From Promethearchaeota archaeon (GTDB lineage Archaea; Asgardarchaeota; Lokiarchaeia; Sigyniarchaeales; Promethearchaeaceae): a DNA stretch of 32,000 nt. The notes below the pieces were generated by a model. The model did no database searches, had not been told where the DNA came from, and saw nothing but the letters and a program-made list of their open reading frames with translations. The translations under genes and the position numbers were made by a program. The DNA lies in NCBI GenBank assembly GCA_016933055.1, contig JAFGBS010000004.1:390001-422000 (forward strand). The letters run 5' to 3'. Numbering within the stretch: the stretch's first letter is position 1; every line of letters begins with the position of its first letter. Positions 16,071-31,552 of the stretch are shown here, one piece after another.

Positions 16071-16186
16071 GATCGGTTGGATTAGCCTTCACTCATGCGA
16101 ATTTTTTTTCCGAGTGTCTGTTTATACAGCCATTGTTTCACCATTCTTAAATAGATATATATGTATGCATAGTGGTTTGCGATAAT

Positions 16187-17803
16187 ATGGATGCATTCCG
16201 GTATTCTTTATATATATCTGTAGGATTCGGGCTGTTGGTCTTTATTTGCTGCTTATTAAGTTCAAAAAAAAGGGCTGATTACGAGGATTATAGAAGGGAA
16301 AAATGGAACAAATATGTTTCTTTTCAAGACCCCGAGCTAAGAAAATCCTTGGAACACGATATCATTGTATCAACAGATGAAGAATTTGAGGCATTTTTGG
16401 TTTCTTTGCGTTCTTCGGTCAAGTATAGACGGGATAAAAACGGTTTACGCATTAGAAAAAACATATGCATGTTTATCAACAATATCTGGATGAATTCGTA
16501 TTCGGAAAAAGGTAGAAAAATTTACAAACGATTGAAAAAACTAGAAGAAATTGTCCCATTACTCAAACGAGTTTATTTTGGGCCTAAATACACCCCCATT
16601 ATTTATCGAGAACGAAAATATGAGAAATCCTATCAAAGGCGGAAGTTTAATTTCCCGCTCCAACCGGATTCCACGGCTCCAAAACTCGATACAATAATTG
16701 ATGTAGCATATCACCTTCAAACCTCAATTCGCTTGATTCTTGCCATTATTTATACTCAATCGCATTCACGCGATCGTAATTATGTTAAAATCACTCAAAT
16801 CGACAAGGCTTTGCATCAAAAGGGGAACTCTTACCTTAGGGTGGTTGGTTCTCCTATAGCTAGACATGTGGATATTGATCAATCATTCATCTTAAAGGAC
16901 AAGAGGGGAAAGGTCCCTAAAAACGCAAAAACAACCGATCCACAAGATGCTTATTTAGAATATAAAGAACTGGATAGTAATTTTTATACACGGAAAACGT
17001 TAGTAAAACCTAATGGCAGAAAACGATTAATAGCCGTTCCCAATGAGAAATTGCGATCCTTCCAGCGAATTATCCTCAAGACTATTCTTGAAAAGGCAGC
17101 CCTTCCTGATGTGTGTACGGGTTTTACAAAGACTCGTTCTACCGTGACCAATGCAGAATTTCATGTGGGTGCGCAAACTCTAGTAAAAGTTGATTTGCAT
17201 AATTTTTTCAATAACTTGTCTCTTGACCATGTATTTGAGGTATTCCGAGGATTTGGATATAATCGTCCTGTTTCGGGGATTTTGGCAAATTTATGCACGG
17301 ATTATTACAGAAGTCGTCGGTATTTACCTCAAGGAGCATCTACAAGTCCCATGATTGCGAATCTGTACGCATTGCATTTAGATAGACGTCTAGAAGGACT
17401 TGCGAACAAGTATGATTTGATCTACTCTCGATATGCAGATGATCTCACCTTTTCTTCTAAGGATCCCAAGATTCGTGTAAGAACCTTTATCCAAGCGGTA
17501 TACAAAATCATAAAAAGTGAAAAATTATACCCGAATTATCAAAAAACCAAAGTATATCGCAAGCAGCATAAAAAATCTGTTACGGGTATCACAGTAAATG
17601 AGAAAGTGAACATTGATCGAAAGTGGGTAAACGCATTTCGGGGTGAACTCTATCGCTATTCAAAATTCGGTGTGCCGGAAGAAGATAGGTTTAGAATCGT
17701 GCATCAAATGCACGGAAAATTTGCCTTTCTGAAAATGGTTAATCCTGAAGTTGCAAAGAAATATGAGACACAAATATCCAAATTCATTGCTGAAAATTCA
17801 TGA
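16187..17803 (+). CDS. retron-type reverse transcriptase with N-terminal transmembrane helix and long basic N-terminal extension
   Basis: KPNGRKRLIAVP, region X NAEFH (17150-17164), VKVDLHNFF, LPQGASTSPMIAN, YSRYADDLTFS (YADD at 17432), region Y VTGITVN (17579). No maturase or HNH domain. The ORF opens at GTG 16172; ATG 16187 follows an ATATATAT box at 16155-16162. Confidence 0.93.
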   Translation: MDAFRYSLYISVGFGLLVFICCLLSSKKRADYEDYRREKWNKYVSFQDPELRKSLEHDIIVSTDEEFEAFLVSLRSSVKYRRDKNGLRIRKNICMFINNIWMNSYSEKGRKIYKRLKKLEEIVPLLKRVYFGPKYTPIIYRERKYEKSYQRRKFNFPLQPDSTAPKLDTIIDVAYHLQTSIRLILAIIYTQSHSRDRNYVKITQIDKALHQKGNSYLRVVGSPIARHVDIDQSFILKDKRGKVPKNAKTTDPQDAYLEYKELDSNFYTRKTLVKPNGRKRLIAVPNEKLRSFQRIILKTILEKAALPDVCTGFTKTRSTVTNAEFHVGAQTLVKVDLHNFFNNLSLDHVFEVFRGFGYNRPVSGILANLCTDYYRSRRYLPQGASTSPMIANLYALHLDRRLEGLANKYDLIYSRYADDLTFSSKDPKIRVRTFIQAVYKIIKSEKLYPNYQKTKVYRKQHKKSVTGITVNEKVNIDRKWVNAFRGELYRYSKFGVPEEDRFRIVHQMHGKFAFLKMVNPEVAKKYETQISKFIAENS

Positions 17804-22425: not shown

Positions 22426-24525
22426 CTAATGGTTCATTTTCAACTTCCTATATGCAATGTAGATACCTAAACCGATTATACATACAATAATTGGAATATT
22501 ATACCCAGGGACCCTATTCGGGGATGCAGGAGTTTTTATCTCGAAAAAGTCGCTGTAAGCATAGATTAACGGGTCTAACATGTTGATTATTTTAATTCGA
22601 TATTGAGTAGAATCACTCAAGCCCGATGGTACAAACCAGTAAAACTCGCCGTCATTCAAGGTGCTTGAAACAATTTCCATCACAAAAGCCTCTCCTATAT
22701 ATAATTCGAGTTTCACATTAGAAATATTTCCTGTAGAAGTCCAATTAATATAATGAGAGCTTTCAAGGTTCCATGAACTGGATGAGGATGGATTAAGTAT
22801 GTTCAAGGTCTTCGAAATTACCACATTAACTTCTATACATGGCGATAGTGTATTGCCATTGTTATTTGAGGCTTTCACTATGAAATAATACGCACTATCA
22901 GAGTATCCATTCAATGGCAAAGATAAATCGGTAGTATCTTCTAAAAGAAGAGTGAGACTCCCGTTTATTTCTGAAATATGCCCGGAATGTTGATATACTG
23001 TATAAGTATTTACCCATGTGGAACTCGTCCATGAAAGGGTAAAAGATCCGTCTGTATCAGGAGAATCGGCATTGCTTGTTAGATCGAAAGGGCCGGGTAC
23101 GGGTAGAGGACCACCATCCGTAATTATCCAGCTATATGTATCAATAATGTGCTGACGGGAAGTCTCTGCAACATTGCTATAAAAAGAATTTCCTCCATCG
23201 AATTCTACTCCGGAAATCAAAGTTAACTGAGACCACCCTATCAATAAGTTATCATAATTATTAGGAGAAAGAAATGCGCTCTTGAACATATAGTTCATAG
23301 ACGTGACGCTGGATACATCCCAATTCCCGATGGGTTGATTGAAGGATGATGCTGCATAGAACATCGCGGATGTACTTATTACACTAGACACATCCCAATT
23401 CCCAATGGGTTGATTGAAGGACGATGCACTAAAGAACATCCCATACATAGTCACGACGCTGGATACATTCCAATTCCCGATGGGTTGATTGAAGGATGAT
23501 GCAGCATAGAACATATAGTTCATAGACGTGACGCTGGATACATTCCAATTCCCGATGGGTTGATTGAAGGATGATGCACCATAGAACAAATAGCTCATAC
23601 TCATCACACTGGATACATCCCAATTCCCAATGGGTCGATTAAAGGAAGATGCACCTTCAAACATACGCAGCATACTCGTTACACTGGATACATTCCAATC
23701 TCCAATGGGTTGGTTGAAGGACGATGCATATTGAAACATATAGTTCATAGTTGTTACACTGGATACGTTCCAATTCCCGATGGGTTGGTTGAAAGACGAT
23801 GCATCATCGAACACCCCATACATATCCGTTACGCTGCATACATCCCAATTTCCGATGGGTTGATTGAAAGATGATGCACCACTAAACATCGATTGCATAC
23901 TTATTATACTGGACACATCCCATCCATTCATATCCCCACTACTACCGAGATCATAACAGTTTCTAAATGCCCACGATAAGCTAGTTGTACCAGTCAAATC
24001 TAGATTGTCACTTGCCGTTAAAACTAAATTGGAACAGCCGTAAAAATAACTACCTGAATTTCCTAATCGTAAACTGCCCCATTGTTGAATTTCAATGAGT
24101 TTTAATCGATCTCCTCCGTTAGCGAACCGCCAACCGATTATCATACCCGTAATATTTACAGTATATACTCCCGAGGATAAATAGGTGTGGGTTACTTCGG
24201 TTTGGTTCCATGATATGATTATATCGCTATCCCCATCGCCCCATTCTACCAAAAAATTGTAAATGCCACTCGATTGCAGAGGTAAGTGCACTTGGTTGCT
24301 GCTACTGGAACCCGTGCTGGTCTTGGTGGTATCCCACACCGATATAAAGTCATTCGGACCTCCGGTATCTGGTAAGGTAAAATCTACATGGTCTGAGTTT
24401 GGTTGATACGACGGCCTCCTTAGAATGGAGAATGCCGACACAGAGAGAATCAACGCTATACACCACACTATTCCAACAAGCATCCCAATTTTTTTATTTT
24501 CTTTGCCTTTTTTCATTTTTAACAT
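22426..24525 (-). CDS. BspA-type/DUF285 leucine-rich-repeat surface protein with PKD-like and Ig/FnIII-like domains and Loki-CTERM-like anchor
   Basis: N-terminal hydrophobic helix, VEWGDG...HTY (PKD-like), 25-aa W(D/N)[17 protein letters not shown] repeats, C-terminal VPGY + TM + RKLK. Confidence 0.92.
23275..23922 (-). repeat. 75-bp coding tandem repeat (8 full copies plus 1 partial) in the BspA gene
   Basis: Recurrent CCAATTCCC(G/A)ATGGGTTG(A/G)TTGAAGGA on the plus strand at 75-nt period. Confidence 0.95.
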
Positions 24526-24872: not shown

Positions 24873-25283
24873 TTATAAAGAATCACAACTAAAATCATTC
24901 TTATTTTCCGTTTCACCGCTTTCTTTGCAATAATCGCAAATGATTTCGATCAACCAATCAAAAACTGTGGGACCAAGACCATTTTGTGCCTTCTCTAAAT
25001 CCTCTTTAATGTGGGCAATATTATTGGGATCACATGTTTCCAAACGCTCAGATAATTGTCGGACAGTCTCCTCATAACCAAGTCGCTGTTGTGAGACCGC
25101 TATATTTTTCCAAATAATATGATACCCTTGCGCTGGTAGAATATCTGAATGGAATAGTTCGTCAAATGCATCCAAATTGCGTCCCCACCATGATGGAAGG
25201 GAGAATACTGTAGAAATATGGTCATAGAATTCTTCTAATGTACTAAATTTGCTACCATCGATGATGAAAATCGGGATACCCAT
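24873..25283 (-). CDS. barstar-family ribonuclease inhibitor (orphan immunity protein)
   Basis: FIIDGSKFSTLEEFYDHIS...WWGRNLDAFDELF barstar signature, and LGYEETVRQL...GPTVFDWLIEII. Confidence 0.9.
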   Translation of the reverse strand: MGIPIFIIDGSKFSTLEEFYDHISTVFSLPSWWGRNLDAFDELFHSDILPAQGYHIIWKNIAVSQQRLGYEETVRQLSERLETCDPNNIAHIKEDLEKAQNGLGPTVFDWLIEIICDYCKESGETENKNDFSCDSL

Positions 25284-25707: not shown

Positions 25708-26127
25708 CTAATTATCTGCCTTTTTTCTAACGGTCGCACGAACAATTTTTTCCTTGATGACGTGCTTGAGAAGCATTTCGAGAATATCGGTCTCGGGAGA
25801 ACGTAGACTCTTCCCATAGGAATCCACATTGATCCAAAATTCTCCTGCATTCTGGGCATGCTTCTGAATGGAGAGGGTGGTTTTCGAGCCGTTAAAACTG
25901 TGCACGGTAGACCAGCGATCGGAAGTGCCCTCCAATACCTTGCGGAACAGGATAAGTTCTCCCAAATTGAGCTTGACGTATTTACCCTCTTTAAGGGTCG
26001 GTTTTTCCCATGCTCCGTCCTGTTTCTTTCGCAAGAAGGTGAGGTAGGCATACTCTTCATCCCACGTGCCGGAATCGAAGATCATGCCGACTTTCTGCCC
26101 GAAAAACGACCGTTGATGGCGCTGCAT
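25708..26127 (-). CDS. conserved hypothetical protein, copy 1
   Basis: The ORF track starts at GTG 26148; ATG 26127 (MQRHQRSFFGQK) follows a GGAGG Shine-Dalgarno. 123/139 aa identical to copy 2. Confidence 0.85.
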   Translation of the reverse strand: MQRHQRSFFGQKVGMIFDSGTWDEEYAYLTFLRKKQDGAWEKPTLKEGKYVKLNLGELILFRKVLEGTSDRWSTVHSFNGSKTTLSIQKHAQNAGEFWINVDSYGKSLRSPETDILEMLLKHVIKEKIVRATVRKKADN

Positions 26128-26367
26128 TAGTCCCGACTCTCCTCCCACTTGTCTATTTCGTTCCTCTTTGTTGGGATATTTAGGGGGTTCATGATATACT
26201 TTCTCTCTTTAGGCGGGTATTTAAAATGAGAGAGTATTATCGAAGAATCTATTTAAAGGCAAAAATTGTGAAGTGAACCCATTCTTCGCAACAACTCAAA
26301 AGGATTGCTTTAATTTCTTATTTATTAATTCTAAAGTTTCATTTGTGAGATGTCTAACTATATCAAC
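25708..26367. repeat. direct repeat copy 1 (660 bp; copy 2 at 29504-30170)
   Basis: Colinear alignment across the CDS, the leader, the TATA box and ~150 bp further upstream. Copy 2 carries a 7-nt tandem duplication (TCTTCGC, 30079-30092). Confidence 0.93.
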
Positions 26368-26431: not shown

Positions 26432-27133
26432 TCATTTTCTAAAATGTAACGCGTAAAATAGTACAGATAGAACATCCATTAAGTTATATATGCCGATTGG
26501 TTCAATCTGTTTGTCTTTACCCTTGGAATCACCTTTAAATTTAGCATAATATTCAGAATATTTCCCTTTCTCCGTTAACTCACGCAGTATAAAACCTGCT
26601 GTACTCATGAATTGCTCTAAACGCCTTACTGAATAAAAATCATCTTGAATATCTATAATAGTAGAGGGTATGTTGTAGGGAATATTGAAATCGCTTGAAA
26701 TTTTTTTTATGATCGGGATATCAAAAGACTGGTTAAAGACAATAACTACATCACAATCAGCTATGTATTGGGAGCTTAAGTTTAAGAGTTCAGGTGCTAG
26801 ATCTCTTTTTCGTAACATATTAAACGCTTGAAACACGGTTAATTTTTTATAATCCTGAGATTGGGGTCGTAAATCCAACACAGCTAATCCCATGATATTC
26901 ATGTATCCTTCTTTTGCTCTAGAAATGATGTCGGTAGTTTCAATATCTAAACATACAATTTTTTTATTGCAGAATTCATTTCCAAGTTTCAAATTTTCAG
27001 AAACGCACTCATGGATATAGCAAATCACCCGTAAGATTTCACTGGTCCATTCGGTATTCCAGGCTGATTTAGGAGGGTATTCATAATAGGACGAAACAGC
27101 GTTATGTTCAAATTTTAATGAAGAAGTTGACAA
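26432..27133 (-). CDS. RNase H-like DEDDy 3'-5' exonuclease (RNase_H_2/YprB-like), 5' part disrupted
   Basis: Exo I IVCLDIETT, Exo II VFNQSFDIPII, Exo III IYNLMDV. The frame stays open 31 codons upstream of the TTG with no start codon. Confidence 0.8.
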   Translation of the reverse strand: MSTSSLKFEHNAVSSYYEYPPKSAWNTEWTSEILRVICYIHECVSENLKLGNEFCNKKIVCLDIETTDIISRAKEGYMNIMGLAVLDLRPQSQDYKKLTVFQAFNMLRKRDLAPELLNLSSQYIADCDVVIVFNQSFDIPIIKKISSDFNIPYNIPSTIIDIQDDFYSVRRLEQFMSTAGFILRELTEKGKYSEYYAKFKGDSKGKDKQIEPIGIYNLMDVLSVLFYALHFRK

Positions 27134-27464: not shown

Positions 27465-29108
27465 TCAAACAGTCTTTTTATCGTGCTTATGTTCTCTCTT
27501 TTTTCTTCGACCGACTGAACTGATAAGAATCGAAATTGACAATAACGCAGTGCACCCGATGATTACATACCAAAATGGTGGAAGTCCCGTAGTATCATCT
27601 TCTGAAGTTCTATGGAACAAATCCTCCATTGCTTGAACAAATGCAAGTTTAAAATACGGGGGTATGGAACTTGCTGCATCAGTTTTACAAAATGATTGAC
27701 CTGCGGGTTTGATATTCACTCCTGAGTATGCGAGTGAGGATTGTACATAATTCACAATCGGATTCGATATATATTTGTGGCTAGAGGCTAGAGATACGCT
27801 GTACAGAGTAGAACTGATTCGAGGATAACTATGCCAGTGATTGGCTTCAGCAATGGTATGAGTATGCATTGGTACTTTATAGTAACGGTGCACATGCTCT
27901 TCATTTCCTCCTATCGTGCCTATTAATGAATCATTAGCGGTAGCGAGAACGAATCTATTAAAGATTGATGTATTCGATGTACCTTTGTATTGGGAAGTAA
28001 ATTCCGGTATTTCATGCACACCATCAGCCCACCAGAAAATTGAATTATTAGGTAAATAGGAAGTTGACTCATTTGTCGTAATAAATGACATCCGGAAGTA
28101 GGGAGGATTAGTTTCAGTATCATAGGTCACACAATTCAAATCTCCCGATTCCATTATAGTTATACCACTAGTTGTTGGATTTGTATAATCTATCTGGGTC
28201 AAAATACCGAGTGTTGATACGTCTGAACCCGGTACAATATCCTCACTAATTCGTGAGACGCCCAACTCATGATGATGGGGATCTACATCTACCTCATGAT
28301 CATGCAAAGGTAAATCGGAATAAGAATGGTTATGTAAGGCATTTCCTCCCAATAATTGGATTTGATCCTGCTTATTGGTGGAATAAATGAACCTATTCGT
28401 AAGATTTGAAGAAAATAATGAACCATTGCATAAAATCCATCCATTAGGAATTGTATCATACGATTCAACCCAGCCAAGAATTGAATGTGCTGGCAAAACT
28501 GCCTCTCCATCATCTGGCGCAATTTTCATAATGTAGGCTAATCTTATATACATGGGTAATGAACTGGATTCATCGGAAACACAATCTTCGACTCCTGCTG
28601 GATATAGATAGAAATCAATTTTGGAAGAGGAGGTTTCCGTCGCCATCGAGTAATCATAGGAGCGATCAATACCAGTTACCACATTAGATTCTGCTCTGGG
28701 TCCCGCAGTTCCATCTTTTTCGTACAGCCAATGTCTATGTCCTGGATCGTTTTTCACGTGGTTGTGATACGGTAATTCGTCATACGGATGAGAATGATTT
28801 ATGGATCCACCCGTTTCTCCGGGATTTTCAAATTCCCCTACGCTCATAATAAATTTGTCTGTTAAGTTGGGTGTACCATTTGCACCATCACAGAGTGCCC
28901 ACCCTTCGGGGATTGAACTGAGATTTCCATTCCATAGCACAATTATTCCGGTCAAATCAGAAGGTAAAAAATTTCCATTGGAATTGGAAATAGAAAGCGT
29001 TTCTAACTTAAAATTATTGGAATCGGAAACATAATGACCCAGAACAGGAAGGAAACATAGTAAAAGGATAAGTGCCGTAAATTTTACGGAGCATTTTATT
29101 TTTTTCAT
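27465..29108 (-). CDS. secreted, C-terminally TM-anchored protein with three tandem phage tail-collar/tail-fibre-like units
   Basis: Signal peptide. Unit 1 GIIVLWNG...IPEGWALCDGANGTPNLTDKF...GETGG...PMYIRLAYIMK is a classic tail-collar pattern, repeated in diverged form twice. C-terminal TM + RRKKR. Confidence 0.85.
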   Translation of the reverse strand: MKKIKCSVKFTALILLLCFLPVLGHYVSDSNNFKLETLSISNSNGNFLPSDLTGIIVLWNGNLSSIPEGWALCDGANGTPNLTDKFIMSVGEFENPGETGGSINHSHPYDELPYHNHVKNDPGHRHWLYEKDGTAGPRAESNVVTGIDRSYDYSMATETSSSKIDFYLYPAGVEDCVSDESSSLPMYIRLAYIMKIAPDDGEAVLPAHSILGWVESYDTIPNGWILCNGSLFSSNLTNRFIYSTNKQDQIQLLGGNALHNHSYSDLPLHDHEVDVDPHHHELGVSRISEDIVPGSDVSTLGILTQIDYTNPTTSGITIMESGDLNCVTYDTETNPPYFRMSFITTNESTSYLPNNSIFWWADGVHEIPEFTSQYKGTSNTSIFNRFVLATANDSLIGTIGGNEEHVHRYYKVPMHTHTIAEANHWHSYPRISSTLYSVSLASSHKYISNPIVNYVQSSLAYSGVNIKPAGQSFCKTDAASSIPPYFKLAFVQAMEDLFHRTSEDDTTGLPPFWYVIIGCTALLSISILISSVGRRKKREHKHDKKTV

Positions 29109-29503: not shown

Positions 29504-29923
29504 TCAACTATCGATAACTTTTCTCACCGTTGCCCGTACGATTTTTTCCTTGATAATATGCTTGAGAAGCATTTCGAGAATATCCGTCTCGGGAGAACGT
29601 AGATTCTTTCCATAGGTATCCACGTTGATCCAAATCTCTCCCGAGTTTTGGGCATGTTTTTGAATAGAAATGGTGGTTTTTGTGCCATTAAAACTGTGAA
29701 CGGTGGACCACCGCTCTGAGGTGCCATCCAATACTTTGCGAAACAGGATCAGCTCGCCTAAATTGAGTTTAACGTATTTTCCTTCTTTAAGAGTCGGTTT
29801 TTCCCACGTTCCATCGTTTTTCTTTCGCAAGAAGGTGAGGTAGGCATAGTCTTCATCCCACTTACCGGAATCGAAGATCATACCGACTTTTTGCCCAAAA
29901 AAAGAGCGTTGATGGCGCTGCAT
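29504..29923 (-). CDS. conserved hypothetical protein, copy 2
   Basis: The ORF track starts at TTG 29944; ATG 29923 follows GGAGG. Intact paralogue of 25708-26127. Confidence 0.85.
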   Translation of the reverse strand: MQRHQRSFFGQKVGMIFDSGKWDEDYAYLTFLRKKNDGTWEKPTLKEGKYVKLNLGELILFRKVLDGTSERWSTVHSFNGTKTTISIQKHAQNSGEIWINVDTYGKNLRSPETDILEMLLKHIIKEKIVRATVRKVIDS

Positions 29924-30170
29924 TAGTCTCGAGTTTCCTCCCAATAGACTATGTCGTTCTTCTTTGTGTGGGTAGTTAGGGGGTTCATGATAGGTTTTCT
30001 TTTTTTAGGTAGGTATTTAAAATCAGAGAGTGTTTTCGGTGAATTTATTTAAAGGCAAAAATTAGGAAGCAAACCCATTCTTCGCTCTTCGCAGCAACTG
30101 AAAAAGATTGTTTTAATTCCATATTTATTAATTCTATAGTTTTATTTGTGAGATATCTGACTTTGTCAAC
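29504..30170. repeat. direct repeat copy 2 (667 bp)
   Basis: See copy 1. Offset is 3796 bp at the gene end and 3803 bp at the far end. Confidence 0.93.
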
Positions 30171-30562: not shown

Positions 30563-31552
30563 TTAGTGGATGATCTTTTTCATCGTGCGTTGTCGACTAA
30601 TAGATACAGCAATTACGACAAACACCATTCCGACTGCAAATACAACACCAAAGGTCCAGTTGGGCACAGATAACGTAATCTGAGGTGTGGGATCTCCCGA
30701 AGTATTGGTCGGCGGTTCGACGGGATCCTCTTCGGGACCATCTCCAATTACATTGCCCTTAGTGAGCAAAAACATGAGATTTACCGTCTCAATCGTACTC
30801 GATATGTCTACGGTGATTCGATATTCGGCTTTAAAAGACACCCCAAAGGTTGCAGAAGTTGATTCGGTCCCATAGACATTGTTCAATTCCACGTTTCGTA
30901 TGAGATTATAAGCACGATTATATTTATCGTAGAGAATTACCGTTACAAATGCTTCTTGTGCCTCTCCGAATAGTTTCTCCAAGATTGTTTCATTCCCGGG
31001 AATCGAATTCGTTCGGCAGGCGACCACGCTGTATTCGGTGTCATCTTCCAAATGAAACCAATATTCTCGCATTTTCGTGTCGTAATATCCACTCACATCA
31101 TATACAATGAAATTTCTCGAATAGGATGACCCCCGATCGTAAATTGCAATGCGCATATTGACATTCTCAGTTACATTGCCCATAACAGTGAGTATGAAAT
31201 TACCCGAGATTGAACATCCGAAAATCGAGGTAACGCTTAAAGTGCTGCTATCTAACTCTCCCGCACCTAAAACGAAGTGATCCGAGAATCCATCACCATC
31301 TCCATCAGGGCCCCTCAAAGAGAGCACCAGGTCCATTTCTACATTGGGGGAATGCAATTCACACAAAAATTCATACTTCTGGTTTTTCTCCAGCGTTAAA
31401 TTAAAGGAATGGAAGGTAATCGGGGGCTCGAATAAGAAGATATGATCGATAAACTGGCCATCGGATGCAGATACTGTCCTAATATTAGTTGAAATACCTG
31501 ATAATGGCAAACACCATAGGAATATAATAAAATAGGAATGCAATTTTTTCAT
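30563..31552 (-). CDS. secreted single-pass membrane protein with two beta-rich (PPC-like) modules
   Basis: Signal peptide, two similar beta-rich segments (FNLTLEKNQKYEF / YWFHLEDDTEYSV), DGDGDG acidic motif, Pro/Thr linker, C-terminal TM + RQR. Confidence 0.8.
   Translation of the reverse strand: MKKLHSYFIIFLWCLPLSGISTNIRTVSASDGQFIDHIFLFEPPITFHSFNLTLEKNQKYEFLCELHSPNVEMDLVLSLRGPDGDGDGFSDHFVLGAGELDSSTLSVTSIFGCSISGNFILTVMGNVTENVNMRIAIYDRGSSYSRNFIVYDVSGYYDTKMREYWFHLEDDTEYSVVACRTNSIPGNETILEKLFGEAQEAFVTVILYDKYNRAYNLIRNVELNNVYGTESTSATFGVSFKAEYRITVDISSTIETVNLMFLLTKGNVIGDGPEEDPVEPPTNTSGDPTPQITLSVPNWTFGVVFAVGMVFVVIAVSISRQRTMKKIIH

Follow-up and report, generated by a model that had tools for sequence, protein, structure and literature searches.

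In the 32,000-nucleotide stretch of Promethearchaeota archaeon DNA analysed here (the window), the gene P0001 occupies positions 27465..29108 of the minus strand, and its open reading frame and translation give a 547-aa type-I membrane surface protein. The signal peptide, consisting of a basic n-region and then a hydrophobic core, covers aa 1-24 (29037..29108, minus strand), as judged from hydropathy windows over aa 4-30, with the cleavage site being inferred. Three tandem units follow, and a transmembrane (TM) helix detected by hydropathy at aa about 511-533 (27510..27578, minus strand) lies only ~10 residues past unit 3. Direct sequence reading and the positive-inside rule identify aa 534-547 (27468..27509, minus strand) as a basic cytoplasmic tail. 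The first-pass annotation had described the ORF at 27465-29108 in this same order of signal peptide, three units, TM anchor and basic tail, and the open frame, the length of 547 aa and the hydropathy all agree with it. The closest database relative of P0001 is annotated 'tail fiber protein [Promethearchaeota archaeon]'. A virion tail fibre would be expected in a morphogenesis module and without export or anchor signals, whereas P0001 carries both kinds of signal, with its signal peptide at one end and its TM helix and basic tail at the other.

Neighbouring genes are chromosomal, encoding Rnf subunits, an MFS transporter, a DUF285 surface protein and further surface proteins, and no capsid, terminase, tail or other viral hallmark genes were detected in the window; on this absence a provirus at the P0001 locus was rejected. 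A diversity-generating retroelement was also considered and rejected: a reverse transcriptase is located ~10 kb off, but no template/variable-repeat pair involves the gene. A direct duplication of ~0.65 kb flanks the P0001 gene together with its RNase-H-like neighbour. The same genome encodes a paralogue, P0265, in which the signal peptide is followed by three units, then four Ig-like repeats, and finally a TM helix with a basic tail; other archaeal homologues are laid out in the same way. Among the Asgard genomes searched, the fused module was found in only 2 of 151. A search of this genome returned unit 1 at C6:418521-418952, equivalent to 28521-28952 of the window, and recovered units 2 and 3 likewise. 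As a separate observation, a weak match with an internal stop was seen on contig C28 (L007).

Three units and their homology to phage fibre tips

Self-alignment, a unit hidden Markov model (HMM) and PHROG families together delimit unit 1 at aa 44-200 (28509..28979, minus strand), unit 2 at aa 201-349 (28062..28508, minus strand) and unit 3, the most diverged, at aa 350-500 (27609..28061, minus strand). Unit 1 comprises a collar-like start, a GG turn, three HxH motifs, a variable tip loop and a P.Y closing strand. The unit HMM recognized three full-length units at 44-200, 201-350 and 348-500, with E values of 1e-69 to 1e-77 that reflect a self-match; the boundaries first proposed (48-196, 205-345 and 352-493) lie within a few residues of these. 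When aa 44-200, 201-349 and 350-500 were aligned with one another, 24 columns were invariant; all six His fall within them, as do the GG turn, the collar-like start (LP..I..W..IP) and the P.Y closing strand. The last three elements had already been noted for each unit in the first-pass annotation. Across the clade of P0001 the GW.LC.G collar motif is replaced in unit 3. The tip loops of units 1 and 2 vary only moderately more than the scaffold, and those of unit 3 no more than it, which counts against diversified loops. Linkers within P0001 measure 8 and 2 residues.

The histidine clusters comprise H105/107, H115/117 and H124/126 in unit 1 (28731..28796, minus strand), H259/261, H269/271 and H278/280 in unit 2 (28269..28334, minus strand), and H405/407, H415/417 and H424/426 in unit 3 (27831..27896, minus strand). 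The motif starts given by the first-pass annotation (105/115/124, 259/269/278 and 405/415/424) proved exact, with +10/+9 spacing in all units. Together with a tenth HxH motif within the cytoplasmic tail, P0001 contains 10 such motifs, whereas none of 20,000 shuffles of the P0001 sequence had more than 7. The His columns were invariant or nearly so in an alignment of 36 units, and also in per-position alignments.

Whole P0001 matched the PHROG tail-fibre families 8469, 5795 and 1800 with E values of 1.2e-28, 2.6e-25 and 9.8e-19, respectively, and single units gave E values down to 3.5e-15. All three units separately matched phrog_5795 and phrog_8469, and units 1 and 2 matched phrog_1800. The matched region is the C-terminal end of the phage proteins; for phrog_1800 it spans 382-545 of 545. 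The Pfam model of the Phage Tail Collar domain (PF07484) was matched by whole P0001 in two stretches at 35.1 bits (E 1.3e-08), above its gathering cut-off of 24 bits, with the matches reaching only the first ~22-26 of 57 model positions; as single units, unit 1 (20.6 bits) and unit 2 (18.4 bits) fell below the cut-off and unit 3 had no match. Against the Protein Data Bank (PDB), positions 3-146 of the unit profile aligned to residues 65-214 of the 215-aa fibre of phage Pa223 (9nxk), and 6ov6, 9qgo and 8kec were also matched. Entries 9nxk, 6ov6 and 9qgo are each deposited as three chains, and Pa223 fibres are trimers of identical subunits. A relationship of each unit to tail-collar proteins and fibre tips had been suspected, and profile comparison extended it over the whole unit length. 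Judged by these profiles, each unit is homologous along its full length to the C-terminal tip domain of homotrimeric phage tail fibres. The family of P0001 comprises at least ~100 clusters at 50% identity and is without a dedicated Pfam or NCBIfam model (no NCBIfam model matched P0001); its members carry only the labels 'tail fiber protein', 'microcystin-dependent protein' or 'hypothetical'.

Unit number among homologues

A search of 1.84 billion proteins revealed three collar starts in 106 of the 156 best-scoring proteins. Apparent counts of four and five units resolved to three or six at lenient thresholds, and proteins with six and nine units are organized as 2x3 and 3x3, with either spacers of ~140-280 aa between trios or six units contiguous. 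Linkers within a trio are mostly 2-8 residues long. For genes encoding two units, a third unit adjoins in four of the five examined; sets are split as 1+2 in L008 and L009, as 2+1 in L015 and as a frameshifted 2+1 in L014. A point against the triplet rule is that in a few two-unit proteins (P0224, P0019 and P0055) a third unit was not identified. The Methanosarcinales virus vir515 encodes three consecutive single-unit paralogues with 47-50% identity. Apart from these few, homologues carry three units, multiples of three arranged in trios, or sets of 1+2, 2+1 or 1+1+1 over adjacent genes, which bears out the earlier expectation of a triplet copy number. In a tree of units, 169 of 213 units had as their nearest neighbour the unit at the corresponding position in a different protein. 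P0001, with three full units, short linkers and position-specific orthology, belongs to these uncatalogued fused triple fibre-tip modules.

The protein had also been called a domesticated fibre. This description holds for the signal peptide and membrane anchor and fails for the fusion itself, as phages carry fused forms of three, six and nine units. Fusion of the units is not a cellular invention.

Predicted assembly and competing explanations

AlphaFold2 (AF2), supplied with P0001 and 72 three-unit homologues, produced a 464-residue model with pLDDT 88.9 and pTM 0.82; the lone sequence gave pLDDT 29, and only the alignment-based model was used. The global confidence of this monomer prediction accords with the first-pass view that the units are not beads on a string. 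Units of the model aligned to single chains of 6ov6, 9nxk, 1ocy, 5iv5, 2xgf and 8kec over 107-143 residues with low structural Z-scores of 2.8-4.3. A Foldseek search of the model against the PDB returned nothing significant (all E values 0.03 or worse, with 6ov6 the best relevant match at E 0.1), a result in line with the extended shape of single chains taken out of interdigitated trimers. The low Z-scores and the Foldseek outcome nevertheless count against the pseudo-trimer reading. A viral cluster of 309 aa in the ESM Atlas matched model residues 16-444 with a TM score of 0.77.

Prediction with each of units 1, 2 and 3 supplied as its own chain, together with 3 Zn, gave an ipSAE of 0.66, compared with 0.17 for the best control. 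Of 80 solved complexes 58 attain that mark, as do 2 of 110 mismatched pairs, counts that are only a rough guide here because our own alignments were used and ligand was included. Three runs shared at least 92% of contacts, with partner pLDDT of at least 76. The three-chain model contains ~600 confident inter-unit contacts, including contacts between equivalent residues of different units: F86, F240 and F386 touch one another in the contact list, as do I56, L211 and I357, and such mutual contact marks an axis. The C-terminal strand of unit 2 (P335, Y337, R339) contacts F386-L388 of unit 3, and that of unit 3 (P483-L488) contacts F86-M88 of unit 1, so that the ring is closed and C-terminal strands are exchanged cyclically. 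His-bearing segments of all three units are within the interface: the confident inter-unit interface includes 6/6 His of the cluster in units 1 and 3, and 5/6 His of unit 2 are among the listed interface residues. The His geometry and Zn positions are read from interface residue lists only. The earlier proposal that three units intertwine in one chain is thus matched by a separate-chain fold that forms a closed cyclic three-unit assembly. Both predictors can turn between-chain co-variation into between-unit contacts, and the three-chain result may reflect memory of solved homotrimeric fibres (the chains being, in effect, halves of one gene, with likeness to T4 gp12/gp37); because of this, the models alone cannot separate a pseudo-trimer formed in cis from stacked homotrimers formed in trans.

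In the trans arrangement, three 547-aa chains would run in parallel with like unit beside like, producing three stacked trimeric knobs with nine metal sites. Although all solved relatives are homotrimers and the predictors could mis-assign trans contacts to cis, a homotrimeric fibre would provide no reason for three, six or nine units in trios or for completion of a set by adjacent one- or two-unit genes. Because each unit of the model has its N- and C-terminal strands at one end, linkers that are mostly 2-8 residues long would be too short to bridge a stacked knob. The units have also diverged according to position, with the collar motif lost from unit 3 alone, and this fits fixed, non-equivalent places in one assembly. 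We regard the homotrimeric fibre as quite unlikely on these grounds. Independent folding of the units as monomeric lectin-like domains, in an array that multiplies binding sites, seems highly improbable. In its favour, surface proteins often contain domains in tandem, and the gene next door encodes a DUF285 repeat protein; nevertheless, the pTM of 0.82 applies to the whole 464-residue model, the ~600 confident inter-unit contacts include some between equivalent residues, the homologous phage domains are interdigitated trimers, and a copy number that would be free in such an array is locked to three.

The same structure might instead serve a defensive or virus-related role, as a decoy or blocker of virion proteins, as a tip mimic that occupies receptors (superinfection exclusion), or as the leftover of an integrated virus. 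Such a role would be in keeping with the probable viral origin of the module, which has its nearest phage-collection relative in a tailed virus of archaea, with its very patchy presence in Asgard genomes (2/151) and with the ~0.65-kb direct duplication round the gene and its RNase-H-like neighbour. It nonetheless appears unlikely: the window is without detected viral hallmark genes, no tested point specifically favours defence, and the two paralogues and many archaeal homologues combine a signal peptide, a trio, an optional Ig-like stalk and a TM helix, as in cellular adhesins.

Overall, these data are best explained by a cell-surface single-chain fibre-tip pseudo-trimer, a reading to which we assign a probability of roughly 0.7. 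Viewed by itself, the modelled ectodomain is probably one compact knob in which three diverged fibre-tip copies pack round a pseudo-threefold axis as the chains of phage fibres do. The gene product would be secreted and anchored by its C-terminus in the membrane on the surface of the Lokiarchaeon. The C-terminal strand of each unit would join the sheet of the next, with unit 3 closing the ring onto unit 1, and the nine HxH motifs would be arrayed on the axis, at the place where Fe or Zn is coordinated by six His in phage homotrimers; by this analogy, up to three metal sites per chain are expected. The two ends of the module would be at its base, ~10 residues from the membrane helix, so that three non-identical variable loops would face outwards, and because one chain would supply all three subunits, the loops could become different from one another and so make up an asymmetric binding face.

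Tailed viruses are the probable source of the module. Its most likely role, on roughly even odds, is to recognize or adhere to a glycan or protein at the surface of another cell, be it a partner, prey or neighbour. A broader scenario, tentative and with the odds against it, is that fusion freed the subunits from symmetry and allowed the loops to evolve separately into an asymmetric face, that Asgard archaea captured this viral device as an anchored organ for recognizing partner cells, and that the stages give a full series from oligomer to single chain; the stages that would be extant in nature are homotrimeric tips, sets of three paralogous genes, 1+2 gene pairs, single fused genes, and giants of 2x3 or 3x3 units. 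Asgard archaeal biology depends on physical contact with partner microbes, and a virus-derived surface knob in an Asgard archaeon would be a concrete, testable candidate for cell-cell recognition. A natural one-chain tip would also illustrate the conversion of an interdigitated, metal-stapled trimer into a monomer, and may become a scaffold for engineered asymmetric receptor binders that need no trimerisation chaperone.

Comparison with known systems

Phage fibre tips are textbook obligate homotrimers with interdigitated chains. In T4 gp12, HxH motifs on the threefold axis hold Zn, and in T4 gp37 such motifs on the threefold axis hold Fe (PMC11705849). Like gp37 (2xgf) and gp12 (1ocy, 5iv5), P0001 has a collar domain and then repeated, conserved HxH motifs, three per unit; in contrast to P0001, the T4 proteins are homotrimers with much longer needles. 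No direct match to T4 gp37 or gp12 entries was listed in the profile and sequence search against the PDB. Structural scores for one P0001 unit were weak, at Z 3.0 over 139 residues (rmsd 4.3) for 2xgf, Z 3.2 over 107 residues (rmsd 5.1) for 1ocy and Z 3.3 over 110 residues (rmsd 5.0) for 5iv5_O. Model unit 1 aligned to single chains of 6ov6, T4 gp12 and T4 gp37.

The Pa223 fibre (9nxk; Pseudomonas phage, Bruynoghevirus) shares the collar start, an HTH motif and a closing IPP...FI strand with P0001, and model unit 2 aligned to one of its chains with Z 4.2 over 122 residues (rmsd 8.0); unlike P0001, it is a virion homotrimer whose chains carry one unit each, contains fewer HxH motifs and lacks both signal peptide and membrane anchor. 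Among PDB entries, the C24 protein of Bizionia argentinensis (6ov6) was the best match by both profile (E 6.6e-12) and structure (Z 4.3 over 123 residues, rmsd 4.2). Unlike the Pa223 fibre, C24 is a cellular protein; it has the same collar start and closing strand as P0001 and differs in having one unit per chain (in an entry with three chains) and an HxH core that was unaligned. The JGI name MdpB, or 'microcystin-dependent protein', of bacterial tail-collar proteins is attached to several homologues, including the three-unit P0011 and P0139, whereas it denotes single-unit proteins of unknown function. A literature search of partial coverage, which took in Asgard tail collars, returned no description of fused single-chain fibre tips.

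The 'tail protein' genes of vir515 (BK063672.1, phrog_5795), whose products were the best match to P0001 in the phage collection, provide three genes with one C-terminal unit each and together a set of three, but on three different chains, which are 230-235 aa long and have an additional N-terminal part of 80 aa each. The 'baseplate structural protein' of Podoviridae sp. ctg2L5 (P0017, MN582060.1), known from its annotation, with no structural description found, is encoded by a gene that adjoins a tail adaptor gene. It carries three full units in a 426-aa chain with 7-residue linkers, as P0001 carries three in one chain; it differs from P0001, to which it is ~21% identical, in being without a signal peptide or TM helix and in presumably being a virion component.

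Layout of the protein and nature of its repeated unit

The target gene (27465-29108, minus strand) is an uninterrupted ORF that encodes P0001, a surface protein of 547 aa. The layout proposed in the first-pass annotation was borne out: a basic and hydrophobic, signal-peptide-like N-terminus is followed by unit 1 (aa 44-200), unit 2 (aa 201-349), and unit 3 (aa 350-500), a single hydrophobic helix at the C-terminal end (aa about 511-533), and a tail rich in Lys and Arg. The 24 columns that are invariant among the three aligned units include the parts earlier ascribed to each of them, namely the collar-like start LP..I..W..IP, a GG turn, six His, and a P.Y closing strand, and the His-x-His (HxH) motifs start exactly where they had been placed (105/115/124, 259/269/278, and 405/415/424). 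P0001 has 10 HxH motifs; among 20,000 shuffled versions of it, the maximum was 7. In the clade of P0001, the GW.LC.G collar motif is gone from unit 3 only. The ectodomain carries eleven N-x-S/T sequons, several of them at conserved scaffold positions (e.g., NLT behind the collar motif and NHS at the first HxH), which could be archaeal N-glycosylation sites or merely motif residues.

In a comparison of the kind suggested earlier, PHROG tail-fibre families 8469, 5795, and 1800 were matched by the units individually, with the matches falling at the C-terminus of the phage members. Whole P0001 passed the threshold of Pfam Phage Tail Collar (35.1 bits), with a match spanning just the first third of this short model. 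By using a unit profile (A2) derived from 36 units of 12 three-unit homologues, we found matches to four solved proteins: the C24 protein of Bizionia argentinensis (6ov6), a tail fibre (9qgo), the Pseudomonas phage Pa223 tail fibre (9nxk), and a cyanophage long fibre (8kec). The first three are PDB entries each deposited with three chains. The Pa223 fibre was matched over the whole unit, with profile positions 3-146 corresponding to residues 65-214 of 215, so that a single unit corresponds to a complete tip domain, which is formed by three chains in phages.

Predicted fold and assembly

Residues 40-503 (464 residues) were modelled by AF2 with an alignment (A3) of 72 three-unit homologues, which gave a mean pLDDT of 88.9 and a pTM of 0.82; the P0001 sequence alone gave a pLDDT of 29. 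A pTM this high over 464 residues means that the positions of the three units relative to one another are predicted with confidence, which flexibly linked beads would not be expected to give. Low confidence was limited to one loop at the equivalent place in each unit (aa about 130-149, 280-299, and 430-449), and these loops coincide with the unconserved columns of the unit alignment. In an exhaustive structural comparison, single units of the model aligned to single chains of 6ov6, 9nxk, T4 gp12 (1ocy, 5iv5), T4 gp37 (2xgf), and 8kec, with Z of 2.8-4.3 over 107-143 residues; such low values are expected, since the solved chains are extended once removed from their interdigitated trimers. Foldseek with the model returned no significant match, and a cluster of 309-aa proteins in the ESM Atlas, most of them viral, matched model residues 16-444 (TM 0.77 as stated in the match row).

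When units 1, 2, and 3 were folded as three separate chains together with three Zn ions, the ipSAE was 0.66, compared with 0.17 for the best control, with at least 92% contact agreement across three runs and a partner pLDDT of at least 76. The ipSAE mark of this test is attained in 58 of 80 solved complexes and in 2 of 110 mismatched pairs; these rates apply only roughly here, because own alignments were used and a ligand was included. Because this pass may reflect a likeness to solved homotrimeric fibres, and because the three chains are pieces of one gene, it shows likeness rather than binding.

According to the contact list, F86, F240, and F386, the invariant Phe residues of the three units, are in mutual contact, as are I56, L211, and I357 at equivalent places in the N-terminal strands; a rotation axis produces just such contacts between equivalent residues. 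Unit 2 places its C-terminal strand (P335, Y337, R339) on F386-L388 of unit 3, and unit 3 places its own (P483-L488) on F86-M88 of unit 1, which closes the ring. Of the 18 His in nine HxH motifs, 17 were within the confident interface. The monomer prediction proposed in the first-pass annotation as a check was globally confident, and the contacts of the three-chain model mark an axis.

Unit number in homologues and the rival assemblies

Both predictors could confuse a pseudo-trimer, in which the three units of one chain surround one axis, with a homotrimer of three-unit chains; what separates the two is evidence that does not rest on the models, a rule of three. The unit profile matched 25,410 proteins (E <=0.001) among 1.84 billion representative proteins, and three collar starts were found in 106 of 156 proteins counted, i.e., the best 150 of the 25,410 plus the earlier close homologues. 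Seeming counts of four or five units became three or six under lenient thresholds. Two proteins of phage contigs consist of separated trios: P0122 (1531 aa; L012:4731-9326) has 3 + 3 units with ~280 aa between the trios, and P0125 (2022 aa; L011:6001-12069) has 3 + 3 + 3 units with ~140 aa between them. P0226 likewise has 3 + 3 units, and P0148 and P0158 have six contiguous units each. Linkers inside a trio are mostly 2-8 residues.

Five two-unit genes were checked for an adjacent third unit; P0019 and P0055 are further two-unit proteins. On two phage-like contigs, a one-unit gene directly precedes the two-unit gene (L008:1592-2964 and L009:899-2342); at L015:573-3796, a one-unit gene comes after a collagen-bearing two-unit gene; and on an Asgard-like contig (L014:2995-4612), the third unit comes next in another frame, through either a frameshift or a sequencing error. 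A third unit was not found for the fifth gene, P0224. The earlier expectation of exactly three units held in a wider form, as threes, multiples of three, and split trios, with P0224 as a candidate exception. In the annotated phage collection, P0001 is best matched by Methanosarcinales virus vir515 (BK063672.1), which has three consecutive, abutting 'tail protein' genes (L013:2746-4849; 234, 235, and 230 aa) that share 47-50% mutual identity and encode one C-terminal fibre-tip unit apiece; these are a candidate heterotrimeric fibre and may represent a forerunner of the fused version.

For 169 of the 213 units in a tree built from 71 three-unit proteins, the nearest neighbour was the same position of another protein, and for 22 it was another unit of the same protein, indicating that the trio is inherited whole and that its positions are non-equivalent. 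Stacked homotrimers of three-unit chains, which structure prediction could mistake for the pseudo-trimer, offer no reason for trio-based unit numbers, split trios, or position-specific units, and neither do independent domains. These data favour the pseudo-trimer.

Genomic setting, distribution, and putative role

To judge from how its closest database proteins are named, the organism is a Lokiarchaeon (Promethearchaeota). The window is ordinary chromosome, in which RnfC and RnfD, an MFS transporter, a MoxR ATPase, and GNAT and metallo-beta-lactamase-fold proteins are encoded and no capsid, terminase, or tail genes were detected. A reverse transcriptase of 543 aa (RVT_1, 93 bits) lies at 16172-17803 on the plus strand, and no DGR-type template/variable repeat was found in the 15.5-32 kb part of the window. 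On the minus strand, 3 kb from the target gene, a DUF285 (BspA-like) surface protein of 699 aa (22426-24525) is a second candidate adhesin; it has a signal/anchor segment, about seven repeats whose coding DNA repeats with a 75-nt period, a Kre9/KNH-like Ig domain, and a TM helix at the C-terminus. The same strand encodes a barstar-like protein of 136 aa (24873-25283; Pfam Barstar, 52.5 bits), for which the ORFs listed nearby include no obvious barnase-like partner, and an unannotated surface protein of 329 aa (30563-31552) with a signal peptide, a Pro/Thr-rich stalk, a C-terminal TM helix, and no Pfam match. A direct duplication of ~0.65 kb (25708-26367 and 29504-30170; 83-86% identity, 3.8 kb apart) flanks both the target gene and the neighbouring RNase-H-superfamily gene (26432-27133); either copy contains a conserved upstream stretch and encodes a 146-aa protein without a Pfam match (25708-26148 and 29504-29944).

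A second three-unit protein of this genome, P0265 (898 aa), is encoded 380 kb away (L017:1520-4216, plus strand = G000:C6:8519-11215) and consists of a signal peptide, the trio, four Ig-like (Big_13-type) repeats, a TM helix, and a basic tail. Other archaeal homologues have the same two layouts, with the trio either directly on an anchor or on a stalk. Distribution is very patchy: 2 of 151 Asgard genomes searched had a match at E <=1e-8, all as trios in one open frame (two in this genome and one in G065, another Asgard genome), a pattern that fits horizontal acquisition. Also in this genome, L007 (G000:C28:122816-123091; E 6.7e-10) weakly matches part of a unit, in its C-terminal half; it has an internal TAA, is located between annotated-looking ORFs, and may be a gene remnant. 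Among phages, the fused form P0017 is encoded next to a podovirus tail adaptor gene, and the giants with 6 and 9 units are located in phage-like contigs. Because fused forms also occur in phages, fusion is not a cellular invention.

Since the model places both ends of the module at its base, this base would be turned towards the membrane or stalk, with the three variable loops pointing outwards. We infer that P0001 is a putative receptor-binding knob for adhesion to, or recognition of, the surface of another cell; a virus-related decoy or blocker, likewise raised earlier, is the weaker alternative. Among the closest orthologues, the tip loops of units 1 and 2 are somewhat more variable than the scaffold, a weak signal, and that of unit 3 is no more variable than the scaffold.

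The family link itself is already known at the domain level, as P0001 is labelled 'tail fiber protein' in one database. Within the partial coverage of the full-text literature, we found no account of a tip domain fused into a one-chain pseudo-trimer or of a fused fibre-tip domain on Asgard cell surfaces. T4 gp12 holds Zn in a manner like that of gp37. In T4 gp37, seven Fe ions are held between paired His of HxH motifs (PMC11705849).
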